Source: Desulfarculaceae bacterium | GTDB taxonomy: Bacteria; Desulfobacterota; Desulfarculia; Desulfarculales; Desulfarculaceae | DNA: 64,000 nucleotides | Assembly: GCA_020444545.1 (NCBI GenBank) | Contig: JAHLKT010000002.1 | Span: 152,870-216,869 of the forward strand | Reading direction: 5' to 3' | Shown: one piece after another, positions 3,264-52,250 of the stretch | How positions within the stretch are numbered: position 1 is the first letter of the stretch | Layout of the letters: each line of letters opens with the position of its first letter | Notes under the pieces: model-generated | Told to the model about the DNA's origin: nothing | Database searches by the model: none | Seen by the model: the letters and a program-made list of their open reading frames with translations, nothing else | Translations under genes and position numbers: made by a program

Positions 3264-5420
3264 CTAATCACCTCCCAAGACGTGCACTTCCTCTAGGGGG
3301 CACACGGTCATCAGGGGACAGGTTTCCTCGTCGGAGCCCAGGTGGGCTGACTCGTGGATGGCCCCCAGAGCCACCGAGGCCAGGGGATAGACGTGATCCT
3401 CCCCGATCTTGGCCAGCAGGTGGGTCCGCTTCATGGCTTCCAGCACGTTTTCCTTGAGGTGGCTGAAGCTGATGTCGTAGCCAGCGCTACGCACCTGGTC
3501 CACCAACAGCGACAGGGTGTCCTCGCCCGAGGCGTCGATGTCGTTGATGCCGTTGGCCACCACCAGGATGTGCTTGAGCTTGGGCATTTCGCGGATGCGC
3601 TCGTTGATCTGGTCCTCCAGGAAGCTGGCGTTGGCGAAGAACAAGGGACCGTCGAAACGAACCACGGCGATGTGCTCGCACTCGGCCAGGCTGAAGTGCT
3701 CCGCGTCGCGCAGGGAGCAGTCTTCGTGCATGGACAGCTTGGCCACCCGGGGACGCATGCTCTTATAGAGGAACACCAAGAGCGAAAGCACCACCCCGAT
3801 CATGATGCCCTTGTCCAAATGGGGGGCGAAGATCAGGGTGCCCACGAAGGTGATGATGCTTATGGCTCCATCGTACCATTGGGCCTTCCAGGCGTGCACA
3901 AAACCGCTCACGTTGATAAGACCCACCACGGCCATCATGATTACCGCCGCCAACACCGCCTGAGGCAAGTGGTACAACAACGGCGTGAAAAACAAAAGCA
4001 CTATCACCACCATCAGGCCGGTGACCACGCTGGACAGGCCGGTTACCGCGCCAGCCTGCAAGTTCACCGCCGAGCGCGAGAACGACCCCGATACCGGATA
4101 GCTCTTGCCCAGGCAGCCGATCATGTTGGCCAGGCCCTGGCCGATAAGCTCCTGGTTGGGGTCCAGGCGCTGGCCGGTCTTGGCGGCCATGGCCTTGGCG
4201 ATGGAGATGGCCTCCATGAAGCCCAACAGGGAGATGATGACCGCGTAGGGGAACAGCTGGAGGATGATGCCCCAGTCCATGGTGGGCGCGCTGAGGGTGG
4301 GCAGGCCGGGCGGGATGTCGGCCACCACCGCCCCGCCGCCGGCCATGCGCAGGCTGGCCAGGTCCAGGCCCCGGTTGCCCACCATGACCCGCCACACCCG
4401 GCCGTCGCCCTTGACCCCCTGGGGCACTTTGCCCTCGGGCCAGAAGCGCATCCGGCCGTCCGGGCCTTCCTCGCCCACGAAGATGTAGGAGCGCAGGTCC
4501 TCGCGCAGCAGGTGGGCCTTGCCCTTTTCCAGCTCTATCTTGGCCGTGTCCATGCTGGCCTGCTGGTGCAGCTTCATCACCTCCAAGGATTCCGCGCCTT
4601 GGTTGTCGGCCGCCTTGCGGGCCGCTACGTTGATGTCGGCCCGCTCCTGGCCCAGGTTGTTGATGCGCTCCACCTCCTGGTTGTAGGCCACGATCTGGGC
4701 CCGCACCTTGGCCGACTGGATGGCATCCAGGGGCACCTTGGCGTCGTGCTGGAAGCCGATGGCCCAGGAGATGAGGGTGGTCACCGCCACCGCCACCAGG
4801 ACGTAGGGGATCTTGGGGTTGATCCGCTTGAGGCCCCACATGATGATGAAGGCCCCCACCCCCATGGCAAGGGTGGGCCAGTGGGTGTAGTGCAGCGCGC
4901 CCTCCAGCACCCGCCAGATCGTCTCGTAATGATGAGGGGCCTTGTCAACGTAGACCCCGAACATCTTGGAGAGCTGGCTGGAGGCGATGATGATGGCCGC
5001 CGCGTTGGTGAAGCCGTTGACCACCGGGTGGGACAAAAAGTTCACCACCAAGCCCAAACGCAGCACACCCAGGGCGAACTGGAAGGCGCCCACGATGAGG
5101 GCCAAGAGCACCGCGTAGGCGATGAAGGCTTCGCTGCCCGCGGTGGCCAGGGGCTCCAGCGAGGCGGCGGTCATCAGTGAGACGATGGCCACCGGCCCGG
5201 TGGCCAGCTGCATGGACGAGCCGAACATGGCCGCGATCATGGGGGGCAGGAAAGCGGCGTAAAGGCCGTAGTAGGCCGGCAGGCCGGCCAACTGGGCATA
5301 GGCCATGGACTGGGGTATGAGCACCAGGGCCACGGTGATCCCGGCCAGCAGGTCCACCCGGAAGGCAGCTCCGGAATACCCTTTGAACCAGCCCAGGAAA
5401 GGGAATATGCGACTCAGCAT
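3264..5420 (-). CDS. SulP-family anion permease with a C-terminal STAS domain
   Basis: 718-aa ORF. It carries the SulP N-terminal signature (FRVDLLAGITVALVLIPQSMAYAQLAGLPAYYGLYAAFLPPMI), many TM helices and the IPPGLP motif. The C-terminal STAS reads IAVVRFDGPLFFANASFLEDQI...VANGINDIDASGEDTL. It contains an unusual soluble insertion (see findings). Confidence 0.9.
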   Translation of the reverse strand: MLSRIFPFLGWFKGYSGAAFRVDLLAGITVALVLIPQSMAYAQLAGLPAYYGLYAAFLPPMIAAMFGSSMQLATGPVAIVSLMTAASLEPLATAGSEAFIAYAVLLALIVGAFQFALGVLRLGLVVNFLSHPVVNGFTNAAAIIIASSQLSKMFGVYVDKAPHHYETIWRVLEGALHYTHWPTLAMGVGAFIIMWGLKRINPKIPYVLVAVAVTTLISWAIGFQHDAKVPLDAIQSAKVRAQIVAYNQEVERINNLGQERADINVAARKAADNQGAESLEVMKLHQQASMDTAKIELEKGKAHLLREDLRSYIFVGEEGPDGRMRFWPEGKVPQGVKGDGRVWRVMVGNRGLDLASLRMAGGGAVVADIPPGLPTLSAPTMDWGIILQLFPYAVIISLLGFMEAISIAKAMAAKTGQRLDPNQELIGQGLANMIGCLGKSYPVSGSFSRSAVNLQAGAVTGLSSVVTGLMVVIVLLFFTPLLYHLPQAVLAAVIMMAVVGLINVSGFVHAWKAQWYDGAISIITFVGTLIFAPHLDKGIMIGVVLSLLVFLYKSMRPRVAKLSMHEDCSLRDAEHFSLAECEHIAVVRFDGPLFFANASFLEDQINERIREMPKLKHILVVANGINDIDASGEDTLSLLVDQVRSAGYDISFSHLKENVLEAMKRTHLLAKIGEDHVYPLASVALGAIHESAHLGSDEETCPLMTVCPLEEVHVLGGD

Positions 5421-15929: not shown

Positions 15930-16637
15930 ATGAGCCGGGGCCTGATCAAAAAGTTGGTGATCCTGGGTTTGGTGGTGGCGGCGGTCTTGGCCTTTTGGCT
16001 GCTGGACCTGGGGCAATACTTTTCCCTGAGCTACGTCAAAGATTCCCGTCAGGCCTTCCAGGCCTATTACCACGCCCACCCGGCCTTGATGCTGGGCGGC
16101 TACTTCCTGGTCTACGTGCTGGTCACCGCCTTTTCCCTGCCCGGCGCGGTGGTGATGACCCTGGCGGGCGGGGCCTTGTTCGGCTTCTGGGAGACCCTCT
16201 TGGTGGTCTCCTTCGCCTCCAGCATCGGGGCCACCCTGGCCTGCTTCTTCGCCCGCTTCGTCTTGGGCAACTGGGTGCAGGCCCGCTTCGGCGACAAGCT
16301 GGAGGCGATCAACCGGGGGGTGGAGCGGGAAGGGGCCTTTTATCTGTTCACCCTGCGCCTGGTGCCGCTGTTCCCCTTCTTCGTTATCAACCTGGTCATG
16401 GGCCTGACCAAGATGCCGCTGCGCACCTTCTACTGGGTCAGCCAGCTGGGCATGTTGCCGGGCACCATGGTGTTCACCAACGCGGGCAAGGAGCTGGGCC
16501 AGATCGACAGCCTGGGGGGAATCCTCTCGCCCGGGCTGATCATCAGCTTCGTGATCCTGGGTCTGTTCCCGCTGGTGGTCAAAAAGGGCCTGGCCTGGTA
16601 CCGCCGCCGCACCGGGCGCAAGCAGATCATCGAGTAG
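15930..16637 (+). CDS. TVP38/TMEM64 (DedA-related) family membrane protein
   Basis: 235-aa ORF with multiple TM helices and a family-typical core (LPGAVVMTLAGGALFGFW...FYLFTLRLVPLFPFFVINLVMGLTKMPLRTFYWVSQLGMLPGT). Confidence 0.85.
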   Translation: MSRGLIKKLVILGLVVAAVLAFWLLDLGQYFSLSYVKDSRQAFQAYYHAHPALMLGGYFLVYVLVTAFSLPGAVVMTLAGGALFGFWETLLVVSFASSIGATLACFFARFVLGNWVQARFGDKLEAINRGVEREGAFYLFTLRLVPLFPFFVINLVMGLTKMPLRTFYWVSQLGMLPGTMVFTNAGKELGQIDSLGGILSPGLIISFVILGLFPLVVKKGLAWYRRRTGRKQIIE

Positions 16638-16653
16638 CCGGAAGGGAGGGGGC

Positions 16654-18126
16654 ATGGCGACGTATGATTACGACCTGGGGGTGCTAGGCGGGGGCTCGGC
16701 CGGGCTGACCCTTACCTCGGGCGCGGCCCAGCTGGGGGCCAAGACCCTGCTCATCGAAAAGGAGCCCCGCCTGGGCGGCGATTGCCTGCACTACGGCTGC
16801 GTGCCCTCCAAGACCCTGATCAAGACCGCGCGGGTCTATCACTTGATGAAGCAGGCGGACCGCTTCGGCCTTCCGCCGGTGGAGACCCCGCCGGTGGACT
16901 TCGCGCGGGTGCGCGACCGCATCAAGGGGGTCATCGCCACCATCCAGGAGCACGACAGCGAGGCCCGATTTTGCTCCCTGGGCGCGGCGGTGCGCTTCGG
17001 CTCGGCCCGCTTCGTGGACGAGCACAGCGTGGAGTTGGATGGCAAACGCATCTCGGCCAAGGCCTGGCTCATCGCCACGGGCTCCTCCCCGGCCGCTCCG
17101 CCGGTGCCCGGCTTGAGCGAAACGCCCTACATCACTAACAAGGAAATTTTCTACCTGGACAAGTTGCCCGAGTCGCTCATCGTCCTGGGCGCGGGGCCCA
17201 TCGCCATCGAGATGGCCCAGGCCTTCGCCCGTCTGGGGAGCAAGGTCAGCGTGGTGCAGCGCTCCGGCCAGATCCTCTCCAAAGAGGACAAGGACTTGGC
17301 CGACGGGGTGATGGCCGCGCTCATGGCCGAGGGCGTGGAGTTTTACCTCAACGCCAAGGTGACCGGCGCGCGGGAGGTTGGCGGCAGGCCGCACCTGGCC
17401 TTCACCAACGCGGACGGCAAGGCCAGGGAGCTGAGCGCCGAGCGTATGCTGGTGGCCTTGGGCCGTAGGGCCAACCTGGAAGGCCTGGGCCTGGAGGACA
17501 TCGGCGTGGAATTCGACGCCAAGGGCCTCAAGCTGGACGCCCGCCTGCGCACCGCGCACAAGCACATCTACGGCGCGGGCGACGTGACCGGCGGCAACCA
17601 GTTCACCCACGCGGCGGGTTACGAAGGCGGGGTGGTGCTGGCCAACGCTGTGCTGCACCTGCCTCGCAAGACGGACTACACCTGGCTGCCCTGGTGCACC
17701 TACGCCGACCCCGAGCTGGCCTCCATCGGCCTGAACGAGAAGGCGGCCGAGGCGGCGGGGCTTAAGTACACCGTGTGGAGCGAGCAGTTCGCGGGCAATG
17801 ACCGGGCCCTGGCCGAGGGCGAGGCCGAGGGGCGCATTAAGCTGATCCTGGATCAGGACGAGAAGATTCTGGGGGCGCAGATATTGGGTCTGCACGCGGG
17901 CGAGCTGATCAACGAGTGGGTGGCCGTGGCCGGGGGCAAGGTGAAGCTCTCCACCATGGCCGGGGCCATGCACCCCTATCCCACCCTGGGCGAGATAAGC
18001 AAGCGGGTGGCCGGCGACGTGCTGGCCCCCAAGCTTTTTTCGGACCTGGTGAAAAAGGGGCTCAAGCTTTTCTTCTCCACCCGGGGCCGGGCCTGCACCC
18101 CGCCCACGGGCGGCACAGCCCAATAG
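16654..18126 (+). CDS. Pyridine nucleotide-disulfide oxidoreductase (dihydrolipoamide dehydrogenase / mercuric-reductase-like)
   Basis: 490-aa ORF. FAD motif GGGSAG; redox-active disulfide GGDCLHYGCVPSKTL; NAD motif VLGAGPIAIEMAQ; C-terminal dimerisation domain with HPYPTLGE. Confidence 0.9.
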   Translation: MATYDYDLGVLGGGSAGLTLTSGAAQLGAKTLLIEKEPRLGGDCLHYGCVPSKTLIKTARVYHLMKQADRFGLPPVETPPVDFARVRDRIKGVIATIQEHDSEARFCSLGAAVRFGSARFVDEHSVELDGKRISAKAWLIATGSSPAAPPVPGLSETPYITNKEIFYLDKLPESLIVLGAGPIAIEMAQAFARLGSKVSVVQRSGQILSKEDKDLADGVMAALMAEGVEFYLNAKVTGAREVGGRPHLAFTNADGKARELSAERMLVALGRRANLEGLGLEDIGVEFDAKGLKLDARLRTAHKHIYGAGDVTGGNQFTHAAGYEGGVVLANAVLHLPRKTDYTWLPWCTYADPELASIGLNEKAAEAAGLKYTVWSEQFAGNDRALAEGEAEGRIKLILDQDEKILGAQILGLHAGELINEWVAVAGGKVKLSTMAGAMHPYPTLGEISKRVAGDVLAPKLFSDLVKKGLKLFFSTRGRACTPPTGGTAQ

Positions 18127-19191: not shown

Positions 19192-19848
19192 ATGCAGCCA
19201 AGACGCAAGTTCCTGGCCCTGGGCCTCGGTTGCCTGGCCGGGCTCAATCTTGTCCTGGCCTGGCCTTCCCGGGGTTGGGCCGCGCTCAAGCGCCAGATCC
19301 TGCCGGCCCACACCAAACCCACCGGCCTTTTCAACCGCGACCCCAAGGGCATTGACAACCGCAACCTTTCGGTGACCCCCATCGAGCAGTTCGGCACCAT
19401 GGGCCAGAGCGACCTCAAGCTGGACCCTGCCAAGTGGCGTTTGGTGGTTCAGGGCAAGCTGAGGCAGCCGCTGAGCCTGGACCTGGCCACGCTGCGGGCC
19501 CGGCCCCAGATGCAGCGGACAGTGCTGCTCATCTGCCCGGGGGTGTTCTCCTATAACGCGGTGTATCAGGGCTTCAGCCTGGGCAAGCTGCTGGAGGAGA
19601 CGGGCCTGGACCCCATGGCCGACATGGTGGAGATTCGCGGGCCCAATGGCGGCTACACCAAGATCGAGCACTTCAAGCTGAGCGAGGTGCTCTCGGACAA
19701 GGTGTGGCTGGCCTACCAGGTCAACGGCAAGGACCTGCCTCCCAAGCACGGCTTCCCGCTCAGGGTGGTGGCGGGAGACCACTACGGCGACGACTGGGTC
19801 AAGTACGTGAGCAAGATCACGGTTCGGGCCACTGGGAAGAGGGGGTAG
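19192..19848 (+). CDS. Tat-exported molybdopterin-dependent oxidoreductase, sulfite-oxidase fold (MsrP/YedY family)
   Basis: 218-aa ORF with the twin-arginine motif PRRKFLALG, the candidate Mo-ligand context LLICPG, and HGFPLRVVAGDHYGDDWVKYVSKI, typical of the Oxidored_molyb domain. Confidence 0.8.
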   Translation: MQPRRKFLALGLGCLAGLNLVLAWPSRGWAALKRQILPAHTKPTGLFNRDPKGIDNRNLSVTPIEQFGTMGQSDLKLDPAKWRLVVQGKLRQPLSLDLATLRARPQMQRTVLLICPGVFSYNAVYQGFSLGKLLEETGLDPMADMVEIRGPNGGYTKIEHFKLSEVLSDKVWLAYQVNGKDLPPKHGFPLRVVAGDHYGDDWVKYVSKITVRATGKRG

Positions 19849-19852
19849 GGCC

Positions 19853-20182
19853 ATGATGAGCCAGGCAAGCAAGCAGGCCTGGGTCTGGGCTCTGGGCCTG
19901 GCCCTGGTGGCCGCGATCCTCGCCGGTCCGGCTCCCCACGCCGACGCGGCCCCGCCTCAGCGCATCGTCTTCTATGTCGCCTGATACGACGTGGGTAAGG
20001 CCGCCCTGGAGGGGCAGCCGGGAGTTATCAAGGTGACCCGGGGCTGGCACCGGGGCCGGGAGATCAATGCCGTGACCTACGACCCGGCCAAGATCAGCCA
20101 GGCCTCGATGGTCGATCTGCTGAAAAAAGCCAAGACTTACCGGGGCATAGCCGTGCCGTCCGCTAATATCCCAGCCCAATGA
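19853..20182 (+). CDS. Candidate secreted selenoprotein, short MsrA-like/HMA-like domain (in-frame UGA at 19982-19984)
   Basis: The ATG at 19853 lies 4 nt after the stop of the Mo-enzyme gene. It encodes the signal peptide MMSQASKQAWVWALGLALVAAILAGPAPHADA, then APPQRIVFYVA-UGA-YDVGKAALEGQPGVIKVTRGW... This reads in the same frame as the track ORF 19991..20182, whose GTG start has no SD. See findings. Confidence 0.55.
19999..20019 (+). other. Candidate SECIS-like hairpin downstream of UGA 19982
   Basis: GGCCGCCC-UGGAG-GGGCAGCC forms an 8-bp stem with one C/A mismatch and a 5-nt G-rich loop. It starts 15 nt after the UGA, within the usual bacterial SECIS window. Confidence 0.3.
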
Positions 20183-20322: not shown

Positions 20323-21330
20323 TTAAAAGGTCCAGCCCCAGCTCAGGCTCAGAGTAAAATCCGGGCTGGTGTAGTAGATCAGGTCCTCGGCAAAGGCGAT
20401 GGAGATGAGCTGGCCGTGGGTCGGGACCCACTGCACGCCCAGGAGAATCTGCAACATGCCGTTGTCCAGCCCCTCCACCCCGGTGTCGTCCAGCAGGGGC
20501 GTGGCCCCGTTTAGCTGGGCCCGCAGGGTCAGGGTGTCGCTCCAGGCCCAGCCCAGGGACAGGCTCCCGGCGGCCACGTTGTTGGGTTCCAGGGGGTCCA
20601 GCAGGCTGGTGTAGCCCAAATAGAAGTACAGGGCGTTGGCGCTCAAGGACCAGCGGCCGTGGGTCAGCTCCCCGGTCAGGCCCAGGGCGGGCAGGGCTCC
20701 CCCGGCCCCCAGGCCCTTGTCCGGGTCGCCGCTGGGCAGGCTCACCTGGCCCAACAGGCTGAGCGCCGCGCCCGGCCGGGCCCACAGGCTCCACGCCCCT
20801 TTGAGGCGCAGGTCACCCACGCCCTGGGTGCTGGAGTCCTGGCTGATGATGGTGCGGCTTCGGCTTGATGCCCGGTAGCGCACCAGATCCTGGGGCACCT
20901 GCTCACGGCCTCCGTTGGGCAGGCCCAGGGCGCGGTGATAGGATTCGATGAAGCCGTCCATAAAGCCGCCCCAGTAAAATGCGGCGGGCAGCTCCACCCC
21001 CAGGCGCACCCCGTGGGGCAGGGACTGCTCATAGCCCAGGGACACGTAGCCCAGCTCCATGTCCAAATCCAGGCTGGCCCGGTTGCTGCCCTGGCGCACG
21101 AACACGCTGGAGTAGGCGGTGGTGAGCAGCAGGCGGCCCGTGCCCGCCGGAGCCACCGCCGCGCCCGTGGGAGTGAAGGGCACCAGGGCCAGGGCCAGGG
21201 GTGATTGGTTGGGCACCGCGAAGGGCAGGCTCTGGGGGCTGGGAGCGGTCTCGCTGGCCATGGCCGGGGCGGCGCTAAGGGCCAGGGCCAGGAGCGCGGC
21301 GGCGATTATGCGGTAAAACTTGAGCAACAT
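20323..21330 (-). CDS. Putative outer-membrane beta-barrel protein
   Basis: Start chosen at ATG 21328-21330, behind GGGAGGGG. It has a signal peptide (MLLKFYRIIAAALLALALSAAPAMA), alternating beta-strand-like composition and the C-terminal aromatic signature SWGWTF. Confidence 0.6.
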   Translation of the reverse strand: MLLKFYRIIAAALLALALSAAPAMASETAPSPQSLPFAVPNQSPLALALVPFTPTGAAVAPAGTGRLLLTTAYSSVFVRQGSNRASLDLDMELGYVSLGYEQSLPHGVRLGVELPAAFYWGGFMDGFIESYHRALGLPNGGREQVPQDLVRYRASSRSRTIISQDSSTQGVGDLRLKGAWSLWARPGAALSLLGQVSLPSGDPDKGLGAGGALPALGLTGELTHGRWSLSANALYFYLGYTSLLDPLEPNNVAAGSLSLGWAWSDTLTLRAQLNGATPLLDDTGVEGLDNGMLQILLGVQWVPTHGQLISIAFAEDLIYYTSPDFTLSLSWGWTF

Positions 21331-21453
21331 GGCCCCTCCCTTTGGGATGGGCATTATAGCCCAGGGAGCATCGCTTGTGCAGGGAGCTTAAAGAGGTTGC
21401 GCCCGGCGCGCTATGTTGGCAATATTGGGGCAGTCCCACGGCAGGAGAAAATC

Positions 21454-29972: not shown

Positions 29973-29988
29973 ATGAGAAAATTTGTTT

Positions 29989-30166
29989 GGGCGGCAGCAA
30001 GGCGGCCATATAGGCCCTAACAGGGAAGCCGGTGCGAATCCGGCACGGACCCGCCGCTGTGACCGGGGACGAAACCCGCAAAACAAGCCACTGCACCGCG
30101 AGAGCGGGGCGGGAAGGCGCGGGGAGTAGGGCGAACCGGAAGTCAGAAGACCTGCCTTGCCGCCGG
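29989..30166 (+). promoter_or_regulatory. Cobalamin (B12) riboswitch
   Basis: The conserved core AGGGAAGCCGGTGCGAATCCGGCACGGACCCGCCGCTGTGACCGGGGA is present, with the B12 box AGCCACTG at 30086-30093. The closing helix pairs GGCGGCA... with ...TGCCGCC. The downstream TTTTCTCC (30209-30216) can pair with the RBS GGAGAAA at 30264-30270. Confidence 0.9.
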
Positions 30167-30273
30167 CGACTGGGGAGAAGGCAAATCCTCGAGACGCACC
30201 GCGTCCGGGGATTTTTGTTTTCTCCGGGGTGGTCCCCCTAACGCTGAACTCCTAACGGGAATAAGGAGAAAGC

Positions 30274-31584
30274 ATGGCCACCCAAGTCGAACTGGCCGTT
30301 CAAGGCCAAATCACCCCTCAGATGAAAGAGATCGCCCTGGCCGAAGGCCTGGAGCCCGAACTGGTGCGCGCGCGTTTTGCCGCCGGCCAGATCGTGGCCC
30401 CCATAGGCTCCAACCATGAGCACAGCGTGGTGGGCATGGGCAAGGGCCTGGGCACCAAGGTCAACGCCTCCATCGGCACCAGCACCGACATCGTGGACAT
30501 CGCCGCCGAGGTGAGCAAGGCCCAAGCCGCCGAGGCCGCCGGAGCCGACACCCTCATGGAGCTGAGCGTGGGCGGCGACCTGGACCAGGTGCGGCGCGAG
30601 GTGTTGGCCGCGGTCAAGCTGCCCGTGGGCAACGTGCCTCTGTACCAGGCCTTCAGCGAGGCCACGGCCAAGTACGGCGACCCCAACAAGCTGGACGAAG
30701 ATATGCTCTTCGAGCTGATCGAGCGCCAATGCGCCGACGGCATCGCCTTCATGGCCGTGCACTGCGGCATCAACCTCTACACCATCGAGCGCCTGGAAAA
30801 GCAGCACTACCGCTACGGCGGCCTGGTGAGCAAGGGCGGCACCACCATGGTGGCCTGGATGAAGAACAACCAGCGCGAGAACCCGCTCTACGCACGCTTC
30901 GACCGGGTGGTGGAGATCCTAAAGAAGTACGACGTGGTGCTCTCTCTGGGCAACGGCCTGCGCGCCGGGGCCATCCACGACTCATTCGACCGGGCCATGG
31001 TGCAAGAGCTTCTGATCAACTGCGAGCTGGCCCAGATCGGCCGCGAGATGGGCTGCCAGATGATGGTGGAAGGCCCGGGCCACGTGCCCCTGGACCAGAT
31101 CGAGGCCAACATCATCCTGCAAAAGCGCATGAGCGACGACGCGCCTTACTACATGCTGGGGCCCATCCCCAGCGATGTGACCGCCTCCTACGACCACATC
31201 ACTGCGGCCATCGGCGCGGCCCAGAGCGCCCGCTACGGCGCGGACCTGATCTGCTACATCACCCCGGCCGAGCACCTGGCCCTGCCCAATGAGCAGGACG
31301 TGATCGAAGGGGTCAAGGCGGCGCGCACCGCGGCCTACATCGGCGACACGGTGAAGCTGCCCGAAAAAGGCCGCGCCCGCGACAAGGCCATGAGCAAGGC
31401 CCGCCGCGACTCGGACTGGGACAAGCAGTACGAGCTGGCTCTGTTCAGCCAGGACGCCAAGGCCATCCGGGCCGAGCGCTGCCCGGCCGACAGCCAGGCC
31501 TGCACCATGTGCGGGAAGTTCTGCGCCAACAAGGGCAGCATGGCGGTGTTCGGCCATCTGGTCGAGGGCACCTGCAAGGCCTGA
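30274..31584 (+). CDS. bzaF: ThiC-family radical-SAM enzyme, predicted 5-hydroxybenzimidazole synthase (BzaF-type)
   Basis: 436-aa ORF with a clear ThiC-family sequence (GTKVNASIGTS..., MVEGPGHVPL, ITPAEHLALP, C-terminal Cys cluster CTMCGKFC). It sits behind a cobalamin riboswitch rather than a TPP riboswitch and directly upstream of cobT. That context is diagnostic of the anaerobic benzimidazole (bza) pathway. Confidence 0.8.
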   Translation: MATQVELAVQGQITPQMKEIALAEGLEPELVRARFAAGQIVAPIGSNHEHSVVGMGKGLGTKVNASIGTSTDIVDIAAEVSKAQAAEAAGADTLMELSVGGDLDQVRREVLAAVKLPVGNVPLYQAFSEATAKYGDPNKLDEDMLFELIERQCADGIAFMAVHCGINLYTIERLEKQHYRYGGLVSKGGTTMVAWMKNNQRENPLYARFDRVVEILKKYDVVLSLGNGLRAGAIHDSFDRAMVQELLINCELAQIGREMGCQMMVEGPGHVPLDQIEANIILQKRMSDDAPYYMLGPIPSDVTASYDHITAAIGAAQSARYGADLICYITPAEHLALPNEQDVIEGVKAARTAAYIGDTVKLPEKGRARDKAMSKARRDSDWDKQYELALFSQDAKAIRAERCPADSQACTMCGKFCANKGSMAVFGHLVEGTCKA

Positions 31585-47847: not shown

Positions 47848-50800
47848 TCATTGGTTCACCGCCGCGTCTATCTGCCCCAGGATGTCCTCGTCCGGAGGGG
47901 CGTAGGCGTCGATTTGGCTGAAGACCTCTTCGTCCGTGAAATGCTTTAGGTAGATGGCCCCGGTGGGGCAGCAGGCGTTGCACAGGCCGTCGCCCTTGCA
48001 CAGCACCGGGTTGACCACGGCCTTGGGGCCGCCCTTGGTCTTGCGCATCTCGATGGCATCGTAGGAGCAGGCCTCCAGGCAGGCTCTGCAGCCCATGCAG
48101 GCGTCTTCCTTTACCTCGCACACGCTGCCCGACACGGTCACGATGTCGTTGGAGAGCATGGTGAGCGCGCGGCCGGCCGCGCCGTAGGCCTGGTTGATGG
48201 TCTCGTGGATGTACTTGGGGTAGTGGGCCGCGCCGCAGAGATACACGCCCTGAGTGGCGAACTCCACGGGGCGCAGCTTGACGTGGGCCTCCTTGAAGAA
48301 GCCGTCCTCGCCCAGGGCCGCGCCGAACAGGCCCGAGAGCTCCACGTTGTCCTCGCCGGGCACCACCGCCGCGGCCAGCATCACGTAGTCCGCGTCGATG
48401 GCGATCTCCGTGCTCAGGATGTAGTCGGGCAGGGACACCCTGAGGACCGGTTTGCCCTCGTCGGACTCGGCGGCCTCCACCTGGGGCGCCTGCTCGGGCT
48501 CGTAGCGCACGAAGCGCACTCCCAGCTCGTTGGCCTCGCGGTAGTGGTCCTCCATGTAGCCGTAGGTGCGCATGTCGCGGTAGAGGATGTATACGTCGCG
48601 CTCGGGGTTTTGCTTTTTCAGCTTGATGGCGTTTTTCACCGACTCGCCGCAGCACACGCGCGAGCAGTAGTTGCGCTCCTCGTTGCGGCAGCCCACGCAC
48701 TGGATCATCACCACGGTTTCGGCCTCGGCCAGGCCCTCGTCGCCGTTGGTGATGCGCTCCTCCAGCTCCAGGTGGGTCATCACCCGCTCGTCCTGGCCGT
48801 AGAGGTACTCGTTGGGCTCATAGACCCCGGAGCCGGTGGCCACCACGGTGACCCCGTGCTTGATCTCCACCAGGCCGCGCCAGCTCTTCACCTTGGTGAC
48901 GAAGTTGCCCACGTAGCCGGTGGCCTCGGTGATCTCGGCCCCGGTGTACACGTGCAACAGCGGGTGCTTGAAGACCTTGGCCTTTAGCTCTTCCAGATAG
49001 GCCGGCACGTCCAGGCCGTCCAGGGTGTCATGGATGCGCACCGCCAGGCCGCCCAGCTCATTGGACTTCTCCAGCAAATAGACCTCGTGCCCCTGCTCGG
49101 CGATGGACAGGGCCGCGGTCATGCCCGCGATGCCGCCGCCCACTACCAGGGCCGCCTTGTTAACCGGCAGGTCGATCTCGCTGAGCGGCTCCAATAGGCA
49201 GGCGCGGGCCACGGACATGCGGGTGATGTCCTGGGCCTTGGCGGTGGAGGCCTCTCGCTCCTTGGAGTGGCACCAGGAGCAGTGCTCCCGGATGTTGGCC
49301 ATGTCGTAGTAGTACTGGTTGAGGCCAGCCTCACGCAGGGTGTCGCGGAACAGAGGCTCCAGGGTGCGCGGGCTGCACGCGGCCACCACCACCCGGTTGA
49401 GCCCCTTCTCCTTGATCATGTCGGTGATCTCTTTGGCGCTGTTGGTGGCGCAGGAGAAAAGCTGTTCCTGGGCGTAGACCACGTTGGGCAGGGTCTTGGC
49501 GAACTCCACCGTGCCCGGCACGTCCACGATGCGGCCGATGTTGGCCCCGCAGTGGCAAACGAACACGCCGATGCGCGGCTCCTCGCCGGTCACGTCCTTC
49601 TCGGAAGGATACTCGCGCTCCTTGGTCAGCTTGTCGCGGCGGTAATCCAGAAGCTCGCCGGTCTGGCTGCCCGCCGCGCTGGCGCTGAACACCGACTCCG
49701 GAATGTCCATGGGGCCCTGGAAGGCGCCGGACACGAACACGCCGGGCGCGCCGGTGTTCATGGGGTTGAAGGGCTCGCCCTTGCAGAAGCCGTGCTGGTC
49801 CAGCTCCAGGCCGAACATCTCGGCCAGGCGCTGGTTGTCCTCCGGCGGGTTGAGCCCCACCGAGAGCACCACCATGTCGAACTCCTCCTCCTTGACCCCC
49901 TCGTCCGGGGTGGAGTAGCGGATGATGACGTTGTGGTTCTCCGGGTTCTCGCCCACGATGTTCACATAAGAGCGGATGAAGCGGGTGTCGGCCAGAGCGG
50001 CCGTGTTCTGGTAGTAGCGCTCGAAGTCCTTGCCGTAGGCGCGCACGTCGTTGTGGAACACGGTGCACTTGGCGTCGGCGTGGTGGTCCTTGGTCAGAAT
50101 CACCTGCTTCTGGGTGTAGGTGCAGCACACGCTGGAGCAGTAGGAGTTGTCGCCTTCGGTGAGGCGGCGCGAGCCGATGCACTGCAACCAGGCCACGTTT
50201 TGGGGGTGCTTCTTGTCGCTGGCCCGGAGGATCTCGCCCTCGTAGGGCCCGGTGGCGCACAAGAGGCGCTCGTAGTCCATGCTGGTGACCACGTTGGGGA
50301 TGCGGCCGTAGCCGTACTCCTCCTTCACCGCCGGGTCATAGACCTCGTAGCCCGGGGACAGCACCACCGCGCCCACCCTGATCTGAAGCTTCTCGGGCTT
50401 CTGGTGGAAATCGATGGCGTTTGCCTGGCAGACGTTCTCGCAGATGCGGCATTTCTTCTCTTTAAGGTAGATGCAGCTCTCGTCGATGTAGGCGATCAGG
50501 GGGATCGCCTGCGCGAAGTAGATGTGCACCGCCTTGTTGTCGGAAATGCCCTGGTTGAACTTGTCCGGGTACTCCACCGGACAATATTCCACGCAGGAGG
50601 TGCAGCCGGTGCAGGCGTCCTCGATAACGTATCGGGGCTTCTTGACCAGGCTCACCGTGAAATCGCCCACCCCTCCTTCCACCTTTTCGATATCGGTGTA
50701 GGAGAGGACCTCTATATTTGGATGCCGGCCGACCTCGACCAGTTTAGGCGAGAGTATTCACATGGAGCAGTCATTGGTGGGATATGTCTTGTCCAACTGC

Positions 50801-50973
50801 GACATATGCCCGCCAATGGCTGGGTTTTTCTCCACTAGGTATACTCGGTAGCCCGCCGTGGCCAGGTCCAGGGAGGCTTGGATACCGCTGATCCCGCCAC
50901 CCACGACCATCACGTCTCCGAATTCGCCGCCGGGCTGTTTAACAGCCTCTTGCGGCAACTGCTCTTCCGACAT
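47848..50973 (-). CDS. bamE: BamE-like HdrA-family flavo-iron-sulfur selenoprotein (Sec at 50758-50760)
   Basis: Track ORFs 50758..50973 and 47848..50682 are in the same frame and are joined by one UGA: ...[40 protein letters not shown]... This is the conserved HdrA Cys/Sec position. The FAD motif [16 protein letters not shown] and several ferredoxin-type Cys clusters are present. The joined protein is 1041 aa. Confidence 0.88.
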
Positions 50974-51098
50974 GGGCTCGTGTTCCCCTTTCCATATCCC
51001 CGGCGCTTCGCCCCGGGGCTTTATCGGCCGATTTGGCCGCTTATGCTCTTTCTGTCCGCCCGGGGCGGTTTCCCCCCCCCACCCCCGCGCGCGGCCCC

Positions 51099-52250
51099 CT
51101 AGAGGGCCTCGGCCACGATCTCGGTGATGTCCTTGATCTGGATGGCCTCATCGGCCTCCAGGGTAAGGATGCTGTCCTGGAAGTTGGAGATGCAGTAAGG
51201 GCAGGCCGTGGCCAGCACCTCGGCCTCCTGGTCCATGGCCTGCTGGAGGCGCAGGTCGCTGAAGCGCTCGCCCTTGGGGGTCTCCATCCAGATGCGGCCC
51301 CCGCCGCCGCCGCAGCACAGGCTGGCCTTGTGGTGGTCGGGCAGCTCCTTGAGGCTAAGGCCCGGCACCGCGCTCAGCACGCCGCGGGGCTCGTCGTACA
51401 CCCCATTGTGGCGGCCCAGGTAGCAGGGATCGTGGTAGGCCACCGTCTTGGCGAACTCGTTCTTCAACTCCAGGCGGCCCTCGGCAATCAGCTCGGCCAG
51501 GAGCTGGCTCACGTGGACCACCTCGAAGTTCACCGCGAAATCGGGGTACTCGTTTTTGAAGGTGTGATAGCAGTGGGGCGAGGAGACCAGGATCTTCTTC
51601 ACCCCGGCGTCGATGAAGTTCTTGATGTTTTCCTTGGCCAGGCGCTTGAACAGCTCCTCGTCGCCGGTTTTACGGATGCTCTCGCCGCAGCAGTTTTCCT
51701 GGGGCCCCAGGATGCCGAACTCCACCCCGGCGGCCTTGAGCACCTTGGCCGTGGCCTGGGCCACTTTCTTAAGGCGCGGGTCGTAGCTGAGGTAGCAGCC
51801 CGGGAAGTAGAGGTACTCCATCTCCTCGCTGAAGGTGCCGACCCCCTGGCCTTGGGCCCAGGCGGAGCGGTCCTTGCGCGACTCGTTGAGCGGGTTGCCC
51901 TCGCCGATGAGGCTGGCGCTGATGGCCCGGATGGGCTTGACCGAGGTGGGGAAGACGCCGTACTCGGTGGCCAGGCGCCTGAGGGCCACGCCGGACTCGA
52001 TCTGCTTCACGTCGCGGGGGCACTGCTGGGGGCAGCGGCCGCAGGTGGTGCAGAGCCAGATATCCTCGCTCTCGATCTCGGTCATGCCGAAGGTGGCCTG
52101 GCGCACGATCTTGCGCATGGAAAAATCGCGCACCCGGTTCCAGGGGCACACCGCGTCGCACAGGCCGCATTGGAAGCAGCGCTTGAACAGGTCGCCGCCG
52201 CTATCGCGTATTACCTCTACAATTTCTTTGTAGTCGGCTACATTCTCCAC
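51099..52250 (-). CDS. bamD: BamD-like HdrD-type iron-sulfur protein (2x[4Fe-4S] + two CCG domains)
   Basis: 383-aa ORF with a GTG start. Ferredoxin motifs: [12 protein letters not shown] and [15 protein letters not shown] motifs: ENCCGES and LCCGGGGG. Confidence 0.85.

Follow-up and report, generated by a model that had tools for sequence, protein, structure and literature searches.

The window analysed here is a 64,000-nucleotide stretch of DNA from a Desulfarculaceae bacterium (contig JAHLKT010000002.1, positions 152,870 to 216,869), and the locus under study comprises two consecutive genes on its + strand. The first encodes a putative exported molybdoenzyme (Mo enzyme; 19192–19848, 218 codons, stop TAG 19846–19848), and the second, whose ATG at 19853 lies 4 nt past that stop, is a complete gene for a predicted selenoprotein (19853–20182) with 109 codons, including one UGA for selenocysteine (Sec), and a terminal TGA stop at 20180–20182. 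The open reading frame (ORF) 19853–19984 translates as MMSQASKQAWVWALGLALVAAILAGPAPHADAAPPQRIVFYVA, closing with TGA 19982–19984, and beyond this TGA the same frame gives YDVGKAALEGQPGVIKVTRGWHRGREINAVTYDPAKISQASMVDLLKKAKTYRGIAVPSANIPAQ, up to the stop at 20180–20182. The ORF list carries the gene as two separate pieces of 43 and 63 amino acids, the latter opening with GTG and spanning 19991–20182 in the frame shared with ORF 19853–19984; judged by sequence comparison, this 63-residue ORF is the tail of a 109-residue exported selenoprotein. The coordinates that the initial annotation had given for the Mo-enzyme ORF, the ATG, the internal TGA and the GTG ORF were all confirmed on the sequence.

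A purine-rich, Shine–Dalgarno-like segment, GGGAAGAGGGGG (19834–19845, + strand, by direct reading), lies within the 3′ end of the Mo-enzyme gene, 8–19 nt 5′ of ATG 19853, and probably acts as ribosome-binding site; the Mo enzyme and the selenoprotein gene are translationally coupled across the 4-nt gap. The product opens with a Sec-type (general secretory) signal peptide of 32 residues with the end motif A-D-A (19853–19948, +) and a predicted cleavage site, followed by a mature domain of 77 residues (19949–20179, +), here called the mini domain, which is supported by alignment, by an AlphaFold2 model of the Cys homologue P0102 and by hhalign and Foldseek comparisons. The UGA selenocysteine codon (19982–19984, +) is preceded by the strand IVFYVA and followed by YDVGKAAL. 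Downstream of the gene, a convergent ORF (20323–21354, −) encodes an exported DUF3187/MetA-pathway-like outer-membrane-type protein (1.5e-30), which is also found at one related locus (L004).

Comparison across species shows that the internal TGA is conserved as a coding position. One genome per species was scanned, yielding 90 relatives, of which 80 loci were kept. The TGA stands directly before an invariant YDVGK(A/S)AL, in register, in 79 of these 80 loci from other species, a figure that describes the Sec forms by construction because the loci were found with peptide patterns from a Sec-form query, the Cys forms coming from independent protein searches. Upstream of the TGA and in frame, the homologous loci carry a conserved strand x(V/T)FxVx and a hydrophobic N-terminal signal, in keeping with the signal peptide first proposed for this protein. 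Homologues terminating at the TGA were looked for, and none of the 80 loci ends there. One locus (L052) has GCA for TGA, and its candidacy as a sense-codon variant was rejected: within its region 4800–5000, AT-rich DNA of unrelated origin replaces the upstream part and abuts the gene precisely at the Sec codon, and its part downstream of that codon is almost identical to locus L024, a pattern that marks it as a broken gene copy or an assembly joint or chimera. The GTG that opens the listed 63-residue ORF was checked as a start of its own and is the Val codon of YDVGK; it reads GTG, GTC, GTT or GTA in homologues and, varying so freely, is not a conserved start.

Cys-aligned homologues were also sought. 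An exhaustive HMMER protein search with the 65 residues after the UGA returned 91 cluster representatives, many of the matches being full-length proteins, ~100 residues long, that have a signal peptide and carry Cys in place of Sec (xFxVxCYDVG), such as P0102, P0017 and P0006. Among the fetched proteins, the Sec column holds Cys in 59 and Trp in 31, another 26 being truncated fragments; the Trp arises because a code-4 gene caller reads TGA as Trp. A word-indexed protein search with the U-to-C read-through gave a truncated self-match only.

A hairpin of the selenocysteine insertion sequence (SECIS) type lies within the coding region (20000–20018, +; stem 20000–20006/20012–20018, loop 20007–20011, UGGAG), starting 15 nt after the UGA, with its apical loop starting 22 nt after it. 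The initial annotation had placed this element at 19999–20019, and an extra pair 19999/20019 is indeed possible in the window sequence; the stem is conserved with compensatory changes. In the homologues, the segment GCN-GCC-CUG-GAN-GGG-CUG shows little or no variation at the third base of its Ala, Leu and Gly codons, in contrast to the free variation of third bases nearby, and its bases form a 7-bp stem with the loop UGGAN. Over 76 distinct sequences, 91% of the stem cells are paired, versus 30–51% when the 3′ arm is slid by 1–3 columns. Covariation is observed at pair 21–35 (AU 30, GU 23, UA 8, UG 3) and at pair 24–32 (CG 71, UG 3, UA 2), and in two loci (L049 and L059) a Gly-to-Glu change in the protein preserves the hairpin pair. 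The hairpin codons (+5, +6, +9, +10 and +11 after Sec) are 67–94% conserved in the Sec forms versus 32–50% in the Cys forms, and variable positions outside the hairpin have equal entropy in the two sets; a codon constraint thus confined to the Sec forms is what a bacterial SECIS lying within coding sequence would be expected to produce. The folding energy of the window hairpin is unexceptional in this GC-rich sequence (z = −0.22), and because it is not significant, support for the hairpin is taken from the comparative data. An Rfam scan of the window at gathering thresholds gave no SECIS family and only a cobalamin riboswitch (RF00174, 108.8 bits) at 29983–30173 (+), upstream of a + strand ORF starting near 30274.

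That UGA is read as Sec in this genome is independently supported, as far as sequence can tell, by an HdrA-like gene of ~1040 codons (47848–51147, −) that is not part of the mini locus. This gene, split in two by the ORF lists, contains an in-frame TGA (50758–50760) in the motif TNDCSM-U-ILSPK; CxxU is the Sec motif given for HdrA selenoproteins (PMC13188914). It fits the earlier claim of UGA decoding in this genome and is probably the gene then labelled 'bamE'. The genes selA, selB, selC and selD do not lie in the 64-kb window, and a tRNA gene search of the window found none. The selenoprotein call follows from the TGA being in register with conservation on both sides, from the Cys homologues, from a covarying, Sec-specific hairpin and from a second Sec gene in the window, and Sec insertion is established to the extent that comparative genomics allows.

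Fold and family of the mini domain

The AlphaFold2 model of the Cys homologue P0102 adopts a β-α-β-β-α-β arrangement, with predicted local distance difference test (pLDDT) values of 96–98 over the domain. Within these ~70 residues, the Sec is predicted to sit where strand 1 ends and helix 1 begins. Invariant or near-invariant residues are F7, V9, U/C11, Y12, D13, V14, G15, A18, L19, G24, G31, E37 and N39 (the Glu and Asn of REIN), V41, D44, L57 and T62, and the Y-D-x-G that follows Sec is kept in the Cys forms too.

Profile searches place the domain near the methionine sulfoxide reductase MsrA, below every family threshold. The window protein gives no Pfam family at threshold and no match to NCBIfam TIGR00401; against Pfam PMSR (PF01625) it scores 12.5 bits and the best member 20.5 bits, the gathering score being 23.7. 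In a member-by-member Pfam scan of 83 members, with U replaced by C in the Sec forms and the Cys forms native, PMSR is the top, sub-threshold match in 48 (profile positions 1–43, best 2e-4), and the heavy-metal-associated domain HMA (PF00403) is matched at E ≤ 1 by 7, the best at 0.026 and below the cut-off. The best NCBIfam match of the window protein is NF041383 (1.2e-9, 38 bits versus a cut-off of 275), with window residues 30–96 aligned ungapped to positions 140–206; this part of the model is MsrA-like, since true MsrA domains match positions 143–238. NF041115, a UxxU metal-binding selenoprotein model, is matched weakly (2.2e-5, far below cut-off).

Profile–profile alignment of the family with 34 neighbouring MsrA sequences by hhalign gives 97.1% (score 62.5, E = 5e-11), superposing Sec/Cys on the catalytic Cys and opening a single gap, of 17 residues, where MsrA has its NPTY...GH segment. 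The register first proposed, with U on the catalytic Cys, is thereby reproduced, and this score, with the sub-threshold PMSR matches, bears out the description of the protein as half-size and MsrA-like. Against a small, hand-typed HMA alignment, whose score is a lead and not a test, hhalign gives 95.8% (score 45.0) with Sec on the second Cys of CxxC; the same HMA alignment against MsrA gives 73.7% (score 32.3). Two proteins tried as a source of HMA repeats (P0072 and P0090) were discarded as low-complexity repeat proteins. When PDB sequences are searched with the profile, MerP heads the list (2.3e-4), followed by several MsrA from 0.016 onwards. Foldseek with the P0102 model ranks MerP and copper-chaperone domains best, at a template-modelling (TM) score of 0.79 and a root-mean-square deviation of 1.9 Å, and also lists the MsrA structures 2j89, 6yev and 6agv, all PDB neighbours having E > 1e-3.

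Key MsrA features are missing from the mini domain. Its active-site motif, x-U/C-Y-D-V-G, stands in place of the MsrA motif G-C/U-F-W-G/C, and instead of a complete MsrA domain of ~150 residues there are 77 mature residues, ending after strand 4. E37 can be placed opposite the MsrA Glu (HAE) and W/F32 opposite the Tyr (GYTGG), in a by-eye alignment with ambiguous gap placement. The HMA-like alternative raised in the initial annotation is plausible at the level of fold or superfamily and fails on the GMxCxxC motif and the Pfam cut-off. The domain is accordingly a minimal ferredoxin-like fold between HMA and MsrA, somewhat nearer in sequence to the N-terminal half of MsrA, and it is outside both families by their own thresholds or motifs. 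On sequence grounds, the family may be an evolutionary link between the HMA and MsrA ferredoxin-like superfamilies.

The mini proteins constitute a new family of selenoproteins that either derives from the MsrA core or bridges to it. Neither Pfam nor NCBIfam has a model for this family; it is absent from the 119 families and subfamilies in the 2026 inventory of prokaryotic selenoproteins (PMC13188914) and does not figure among those newly described in the deep-Sep study (PMC12013277). Identity with the deep-Sep 'hypothetical proteins DG, DW, DF' was considered and rejected, as NF049953, NF041197 and NF049942 miss the window protein and the motifs differ. Full-text literature searches for the mini motif and for MsrA-like selenoproteins found nothing. 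A study of Olavius symbionts lists MsrA together with several unnamed TGA candidates (PMC1976440), and an earlier unnamed sighting is possible because two of the loci (L044 and L072) come from such Olavius-type symbionts. In databases, members are named hypothetical, twice 'MsrA' and once 'CopZ', and the fetched records hold a 'hypothetical protein' of 55–74 residues, a code-4 read-through with Trp, or nothing.

Gene neighbourhood and the molybdoenzyme

ORFs lying ≤4 kb from the Sec codon were clustered over the 80 loci. MsrA and/or MsrB lies beside the mini gene in about 50 of them, usually adjacent and on the same strand and often as one exported MsrA–MsrB protein; by motif count, methionine sulfoxide reductase (Msr) genes occur in 48 loci, most within ~1.5 kb and on the same strand. 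An OmpR-type response regulator is present in 41 loci and a histidine kinase in 45, and a Cys-form locus (L083) keeps the same order of regulator, kinase, mini gene and MsrAB. Assignment of the kinase to the HprS/CusS type was rejected: its matches spread over BaeS, WalK, PhoR and CopS models, all below cut-off, and no specific kinase type is therefore assignable. Among the neighbouring MsrA, 33 carry GCFWC and 11 an in-frame TGA in GUFWG; the neighbouring MsrB carry GTGWPSF in 33 of 33 cases, with no Cys at the usual resolving position.

The mini domain is also fused to both reductases. In two loci (L021 and L040), an MsrB with a twin-arginine translocation (Tat) signal runs stop-free into a mini domain, and the MsrB/A bifunctional model NF004042 aligns collinearly through MsrB into the mini domain of this fusion. 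In five others (L012, L017, L020, L022 and L029), a signal peptide and a mini domain with U are joined through a linker to a complete MsrA in which a second UGA encodes the catalytic residue, in the motif ...TATFALG-U-FWGPDSRF.... A protein search with the mini–MsrA fusion for a Cys–Cys counterpart was dominated by ordinary MsrA, with coverage of at most 77%. This adjacency and fusion strengthen the initial proposal of a role in envelope methionine-sulfoxide repair. Among the clustered ORFs, no thioredoxin (Trx)-like or CcdA/DsbD gene recurs in the 80 loci, and neither does any metal transporter, MerA/MerT or CopA.

Several further features of these loci were observed. Carriers of the predicted double selenoprotein belong to Candidatus Deferrimicrobium/Deferrimicrobiaceae and to unclassified metagenome-assembled genomes, and the five fusion frames end after ...ACPAG in a TGA that may be a stop or a third Sec codon, with weakly similar sequence beyond. 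An ArsS-like radical SAM/Cys-rich protein (...CNQACRHCH...), of a family (TIGR04167) that is itself listed among selenoproteins, recurs beside mini–Msr genes in two lineages, at −1980..−1012 relative to Sec in L009 and downstream of mini/MsrA in L012, L017, L020, L022, L026, L029 and L051. In five loci without Msr genes (L028, L031, L044, L049 and L072), a conserved exported protein of ~225 residues (MK...YxVTITNxTxGQxxSPP...) is encoded directly 5′ of the mini gene, between it and the kinase gene; its first 60 residues have no Pfam match.

The Mo enzyme of the window has a twin-arginine N-terminus (MQPRRKFLALG) and a Pfam Oxidored_molyb domain (3.5e-30), consisting of the SUOX-fold domain that binds the molybdenum cofactor (Moco) only. 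The initial annotation had assigned it to the MsrP/YedY type; the SUOX/YedY fold stands, with SorA (3e-13) and YedY (1xdq, 2.7e-7) as solved relatives, and membership of the MsrP family does not, the score being 40 bits against the 207-bit cut-off of the MsrP model NF003767. The enzyme is far below cut-off in the NCBIfam SorA, SoxC and MsrP models alike. Orthologues lie directly upstream of the mini gene in eight loci (L004, L016, L018, L039, L047, L048, L054 and L066) and 2 kb upstream in L009, so that a Mo enzyme is found near the mini gene in 10 of 81 loci, the window included. Of these ten, eight are without a nearby Msr gene, and in L009 and L039 the Mo enzyme lies within a cluster of response regulator, histidine kinase, Msr and mini genes. 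No MsrQ-like or cytochrome partner gene stands beside the Mo enzyme at the window locus or at the related Mo loci. The pairing of selenoprotein and Mo enzyme first proposed is thus retained as a recurrent synteny, with the qualification that the main partners are periplasmic MsrA/MsrB and a two-component system. By their distribution, Mo enzyme and MsrA/B are largely alternative partners, and at the window locus the Mo enzyme replaces MsrA/B as the neighbour of the mini gene.

Upstream of the mini gene, the window also encodes (15930–18126, +) a VTT/TVP38 (DedA-like) membrane protein and a pyridine-nucleotide-disulfide oxidoreductase of 490 residues with a CLHYGC motif. The pair recurs upstream of the mini gene in seven loci (L004, L047, L048, L017, L022, L026 and L051), and in L019 the oxidoreductase alone was detected. 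In the Desulfarculaceae the pair precedes the order glucokinase–Mo enzyme–mini, and in the distant Deferrimicrobiaceae it lies directly before the mini or mini–MsrA gene. From this co-location, the pair could be an electron-input module.

Proposed function and its alternatives

Functional statements about the mini protein are drawn from sequence, the structural model and gene context; the data show the Sec recoding, the family with its fold and homology, the neighbourhood and the fusions, and from these the periplasmic location, the redox role and the partner chemistry are deduced. The balance of evidence leans modestly towards an exported selenoprotein of a new family that serves as a single-selenol partner module of envelope methionine-sulfoxide repair. 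In such a scheme, the mini selenolate would attack the sulfenic or selenenic acid on the catalytic residue of Msr, or the disulfide resulting from it, so that the mini domain would supply a trans-acting resolving or recycling residue for Msr and do the work that a thioredoxin-like domain or eTrx does in other Msr systems outside the cytoplasm. Its partners would be exported MsrA/MsrB in most species and, at the present locus, the coupled Tat-exported SUOX-fold molybdoenzyme. This partner role is favoured because the mini domain accompanies complete MsrA rather than replacing it, because every partner MsrB is a 1-Cys enzyme and one in four partner MsrA contains Sec, because the usual Trx/CcdA partners are missing from the loci, and because the analogous operon position in Fusobacterium is held by eTrx and CcdA (PMC12288474). 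Published work on the Clostridium enzyme (refs 85 and 86 of PMC13188914) reportedly found that Sec-MsrA needs a special reductant.

A number of observations weigh against such a partner role. With one conserved redox residue, a two-electron cycle needs a second molecule or another reductant, and none is encoded consistently nearby in the 80 loci. MsrA of the B. subtilis type (GCFWC) already supplies an internal recycling Cys, and the 33 GCFWC partner MsrA probably have one as well. The pairing with a Mo enzyme in the window is not explained by a resolving residue, since an MsrP-type molybdoenzyme needs no thiol or selenol partner. Approximately 15–20 loci have no Msr, Mo or two-component neighbour, the periplasmic location of the mini protein is predicted from the look of its signal peptide, and the HMA-type relationship scores nearly as high as that to MsrA.

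A wider picture, tentative and rather unlikely in its entirety, is a selenium-based, thioredoxin-independent recycling of envelope Msr in anaerobes. The one selenol of an MsrA-derived half domain would resolve the oxidised residue of 1-Cys MsrB and of Sec-MsrA, and the mini domain would itself be regenerated by a dedicated route. At the present locus the coupled SUOX-fold molybdoenzyme could regenerate it, acting on a Sec-oxide or a selenenylsulfide, and electron input could come from the VTT/DedA protein and the NAD(P)H-dependent disulfide oxidoreductase that recur as a pair upstream. The mini domain would in addition represent an evolutionary bridge from HMA metal-binding domains to MsrA.

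Among the alternatives to the partner role, a stand-alone minimal reductase is the one that survives best, and it is viewed here as doubtful. In this case the mini protein would be a catalytic 'half MsrA' whose Sec attacks peptide-bound or free methionine sulfoxide, or a different S- or Se-oxide, with small thiols or sulfide restoring the Sec afterwards; it would add a substrate range distinct from those of MsrA, MsrB or the Mo enzyme. The alignment of Sec/Cys with the MsrA catalytic Cys is consistent with this, as are E37 (≥90% conserved) and W/F32 in their by-eye, gap-ambiguous placement on the MsrA Glu and Tyr, and the MsrB–mini fusion reproduces the architecture of MsrB–MsrA bifunctional enzymes. 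Moreover, C-Y-D-x-G is conserved in the Cys forms as well and thus reflects protein function and not the SECIS alone. However, the residues that form the Phe-Trp pocket in GCFWG are here Tyr-Asp, and nothing corresponds to the C-terminal half of MsrA, which in E. coli carries Tyr134 and Asp129. The usual co-occurrence with complete MsrA, fused in five loci, speaks against simple redundancy.

It is very unlikely that the protein is an HMA/MerP-type periplasmic binder of Cu(I), Hg(II) or Ag(I) in which a selenolate serves as ligand, perhaps within a dimer, the two-component system then being a metal or envelope-stress sensor. MerP and the copper chaperones are the best structural matches and MerP leads the PDB-sequence profile search, to which the hhalign score against the hand-typed HMA alignment, the weak NF041115 match, one fragment named CopZ by JGI and sub-threshold matches of the kinases to heavy-metal sensor models, among many others, can be added. 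Against metal binding stand the single Cys/Sec without GMxCxxC, with Sec matching only one Cys of that motif (the second in MerP), the lack of any recurring metal transporter, MerA/MerT or CopA neighbour, fusion partners that are MsrA and MsrB and not P-type ATPases, and Pfam HMA matches in 7 of 83 members versus PMSR in 48.

Highly improbable, too, is a redox-sensing accessory of the adjacent kinase, in which hypochlorous acid or peroxide would oxidise an exposed Sec and the altered kinase contact would switch on the msr operon. An OmpR-type regulator and a kinase do lie upstream in about 45 of the 80 loci, and in four (L065, L070, L077 and L079) the mini gene comes after the kinase and its surroundings yielded no Msr gene. 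A simpler view of the two-component pair is nevertheless that it regulates the operon, in the way that ModRS regulates msrAB2; no such kinase occurs near the mini gene in the window or in other Desulfarculaceae loci, and a covalent fusion to MsrA/MsrB is unexpected for a sensor ligand.

The remaining alternative, that translation really ends at TGA 19982 and that a separate small gene, or conservation of non-coding DNA, accounts for the downstream similarity, is effectively refuted by the comparative data: gene callers and NCBI annotate only the 63-residue fragment, as a hypothetical protein, the folding energy of the hairpin region is not exceptional and the window contains neither selA–selD nor a tRNA gene, but the conservation on either side of the TGA, seen in 79 loci of several phyla, the many homologues with Cys in that column, the unconserved GTG start, the covarying hairpin and the HdrA-like UGA-containing gene all speak against it.

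The family is mis-annotated in at least about 90 species of Desulfobacterota, Deferrimicrobia, Nitrospirota, SAR324 and Myxococcota. Recognising it would add to the prokaryotic selenoproteome, reveal fusions of mini-U and MsrA-U into double selenoproteins, and let annotation pipelines repair the genes. For the electron supply of exported MsrA/MsrB and of MsrQ-less MsrP-like enzymes in anaerobes, the Sec domain offers a testable candidate, standing in loci without the Trx/CcdA partners known from Neisseria, Streptococcus and Fusobacterium. Given its near-equal MsrA and HMA scores, the mini domain may also show how the MsrA catalytic core relates to the ferredoxin-like metal-binding fold.

Comparison with known systems

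The Mo enzyme resembles MsrP/YedY and SorA in its Tat signal, its Oxidored_molyb domain and its occurrence in Msr-type clusters (L009 and L039), and differs from them in having 218 residues and a Moco domain only, in scoring below the family cut-offs, and in the absence of an adjoining MsrQ-like or cytochrome gene.

Compared with HMA, MerP and CopZ (PF00403), the mini domain has the same size, the same β-α-β-β-α-β topology and a reactive residue at the start of helix 1, and like MerP the mini protein is predicted to be exported. Unlike HMA domains, it has a single Sec/Cys in place of GMxCxxC, a conserved Tyr-Asp after Sec and Glu/Asn on strand 3, and it is found in an Msr and not a metal neighbourhood.

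NF041383, the VPGUxxT thioredoxin-like (seleno)protein type 2 (OS_HP5 of the Olavius symbiont study), contains an MsrA-like part that matches the mini domain; the mini protein lacks the VPGUxxT thioredoxin-like half and carries its Sec at a different site. True MsrA domains match the C-terminal half of NF041383 (positions about 140–287) at 3e-20, and because no 17-residue gap is needed to align this half with the mini domain, it may be a related shortened MsrA-like domain fused to a Trx-like selenoprotein.

By analogy, the locus recalls the N-terminal domain of PilB (Neisseria) and the eTrx/CcdA system of Fusobacterium, in which a small exported redox protein would likewise accompany a two-component system and exported MsrAB. 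In F. nucleatum, the msrAB2 cluster has eTrx and CcdA beside the two-component system ModRS (PMC12288474). The mini domain differs from PilB Trx and eTrx in its unrelated fold, in having one redox residue and not CxxC, and in the absence of a nearby CcdA/DsbD gene; like the Trx domain of PilB, it is fused to Msr domains in some species.

The closest comparison is with MsrA itself (PF01625, TIGR00401). The mini domain has 77 residues versus ~150, lacks the NPTY...GH insertion and the C-terminal half, carries U-Y-D for C-F-W, stays below the Pfam gathering score in every member tested and co-occurs with MsrA instead of replacing it. The β1-Cys/Sec-helix1-β2 and (V/I)xYDPxxI(S/T)xxxL segments nevertheless align in register with MsrA, including its GUFWG form (Clostridium/Alkaliphilus oremlandii type), Sec and Cys exchange at the nucleophile position in both, and gene context places the two in the same biological process, a Sec-MsrA being adjacent or fused to the mini gene in 11 loci.

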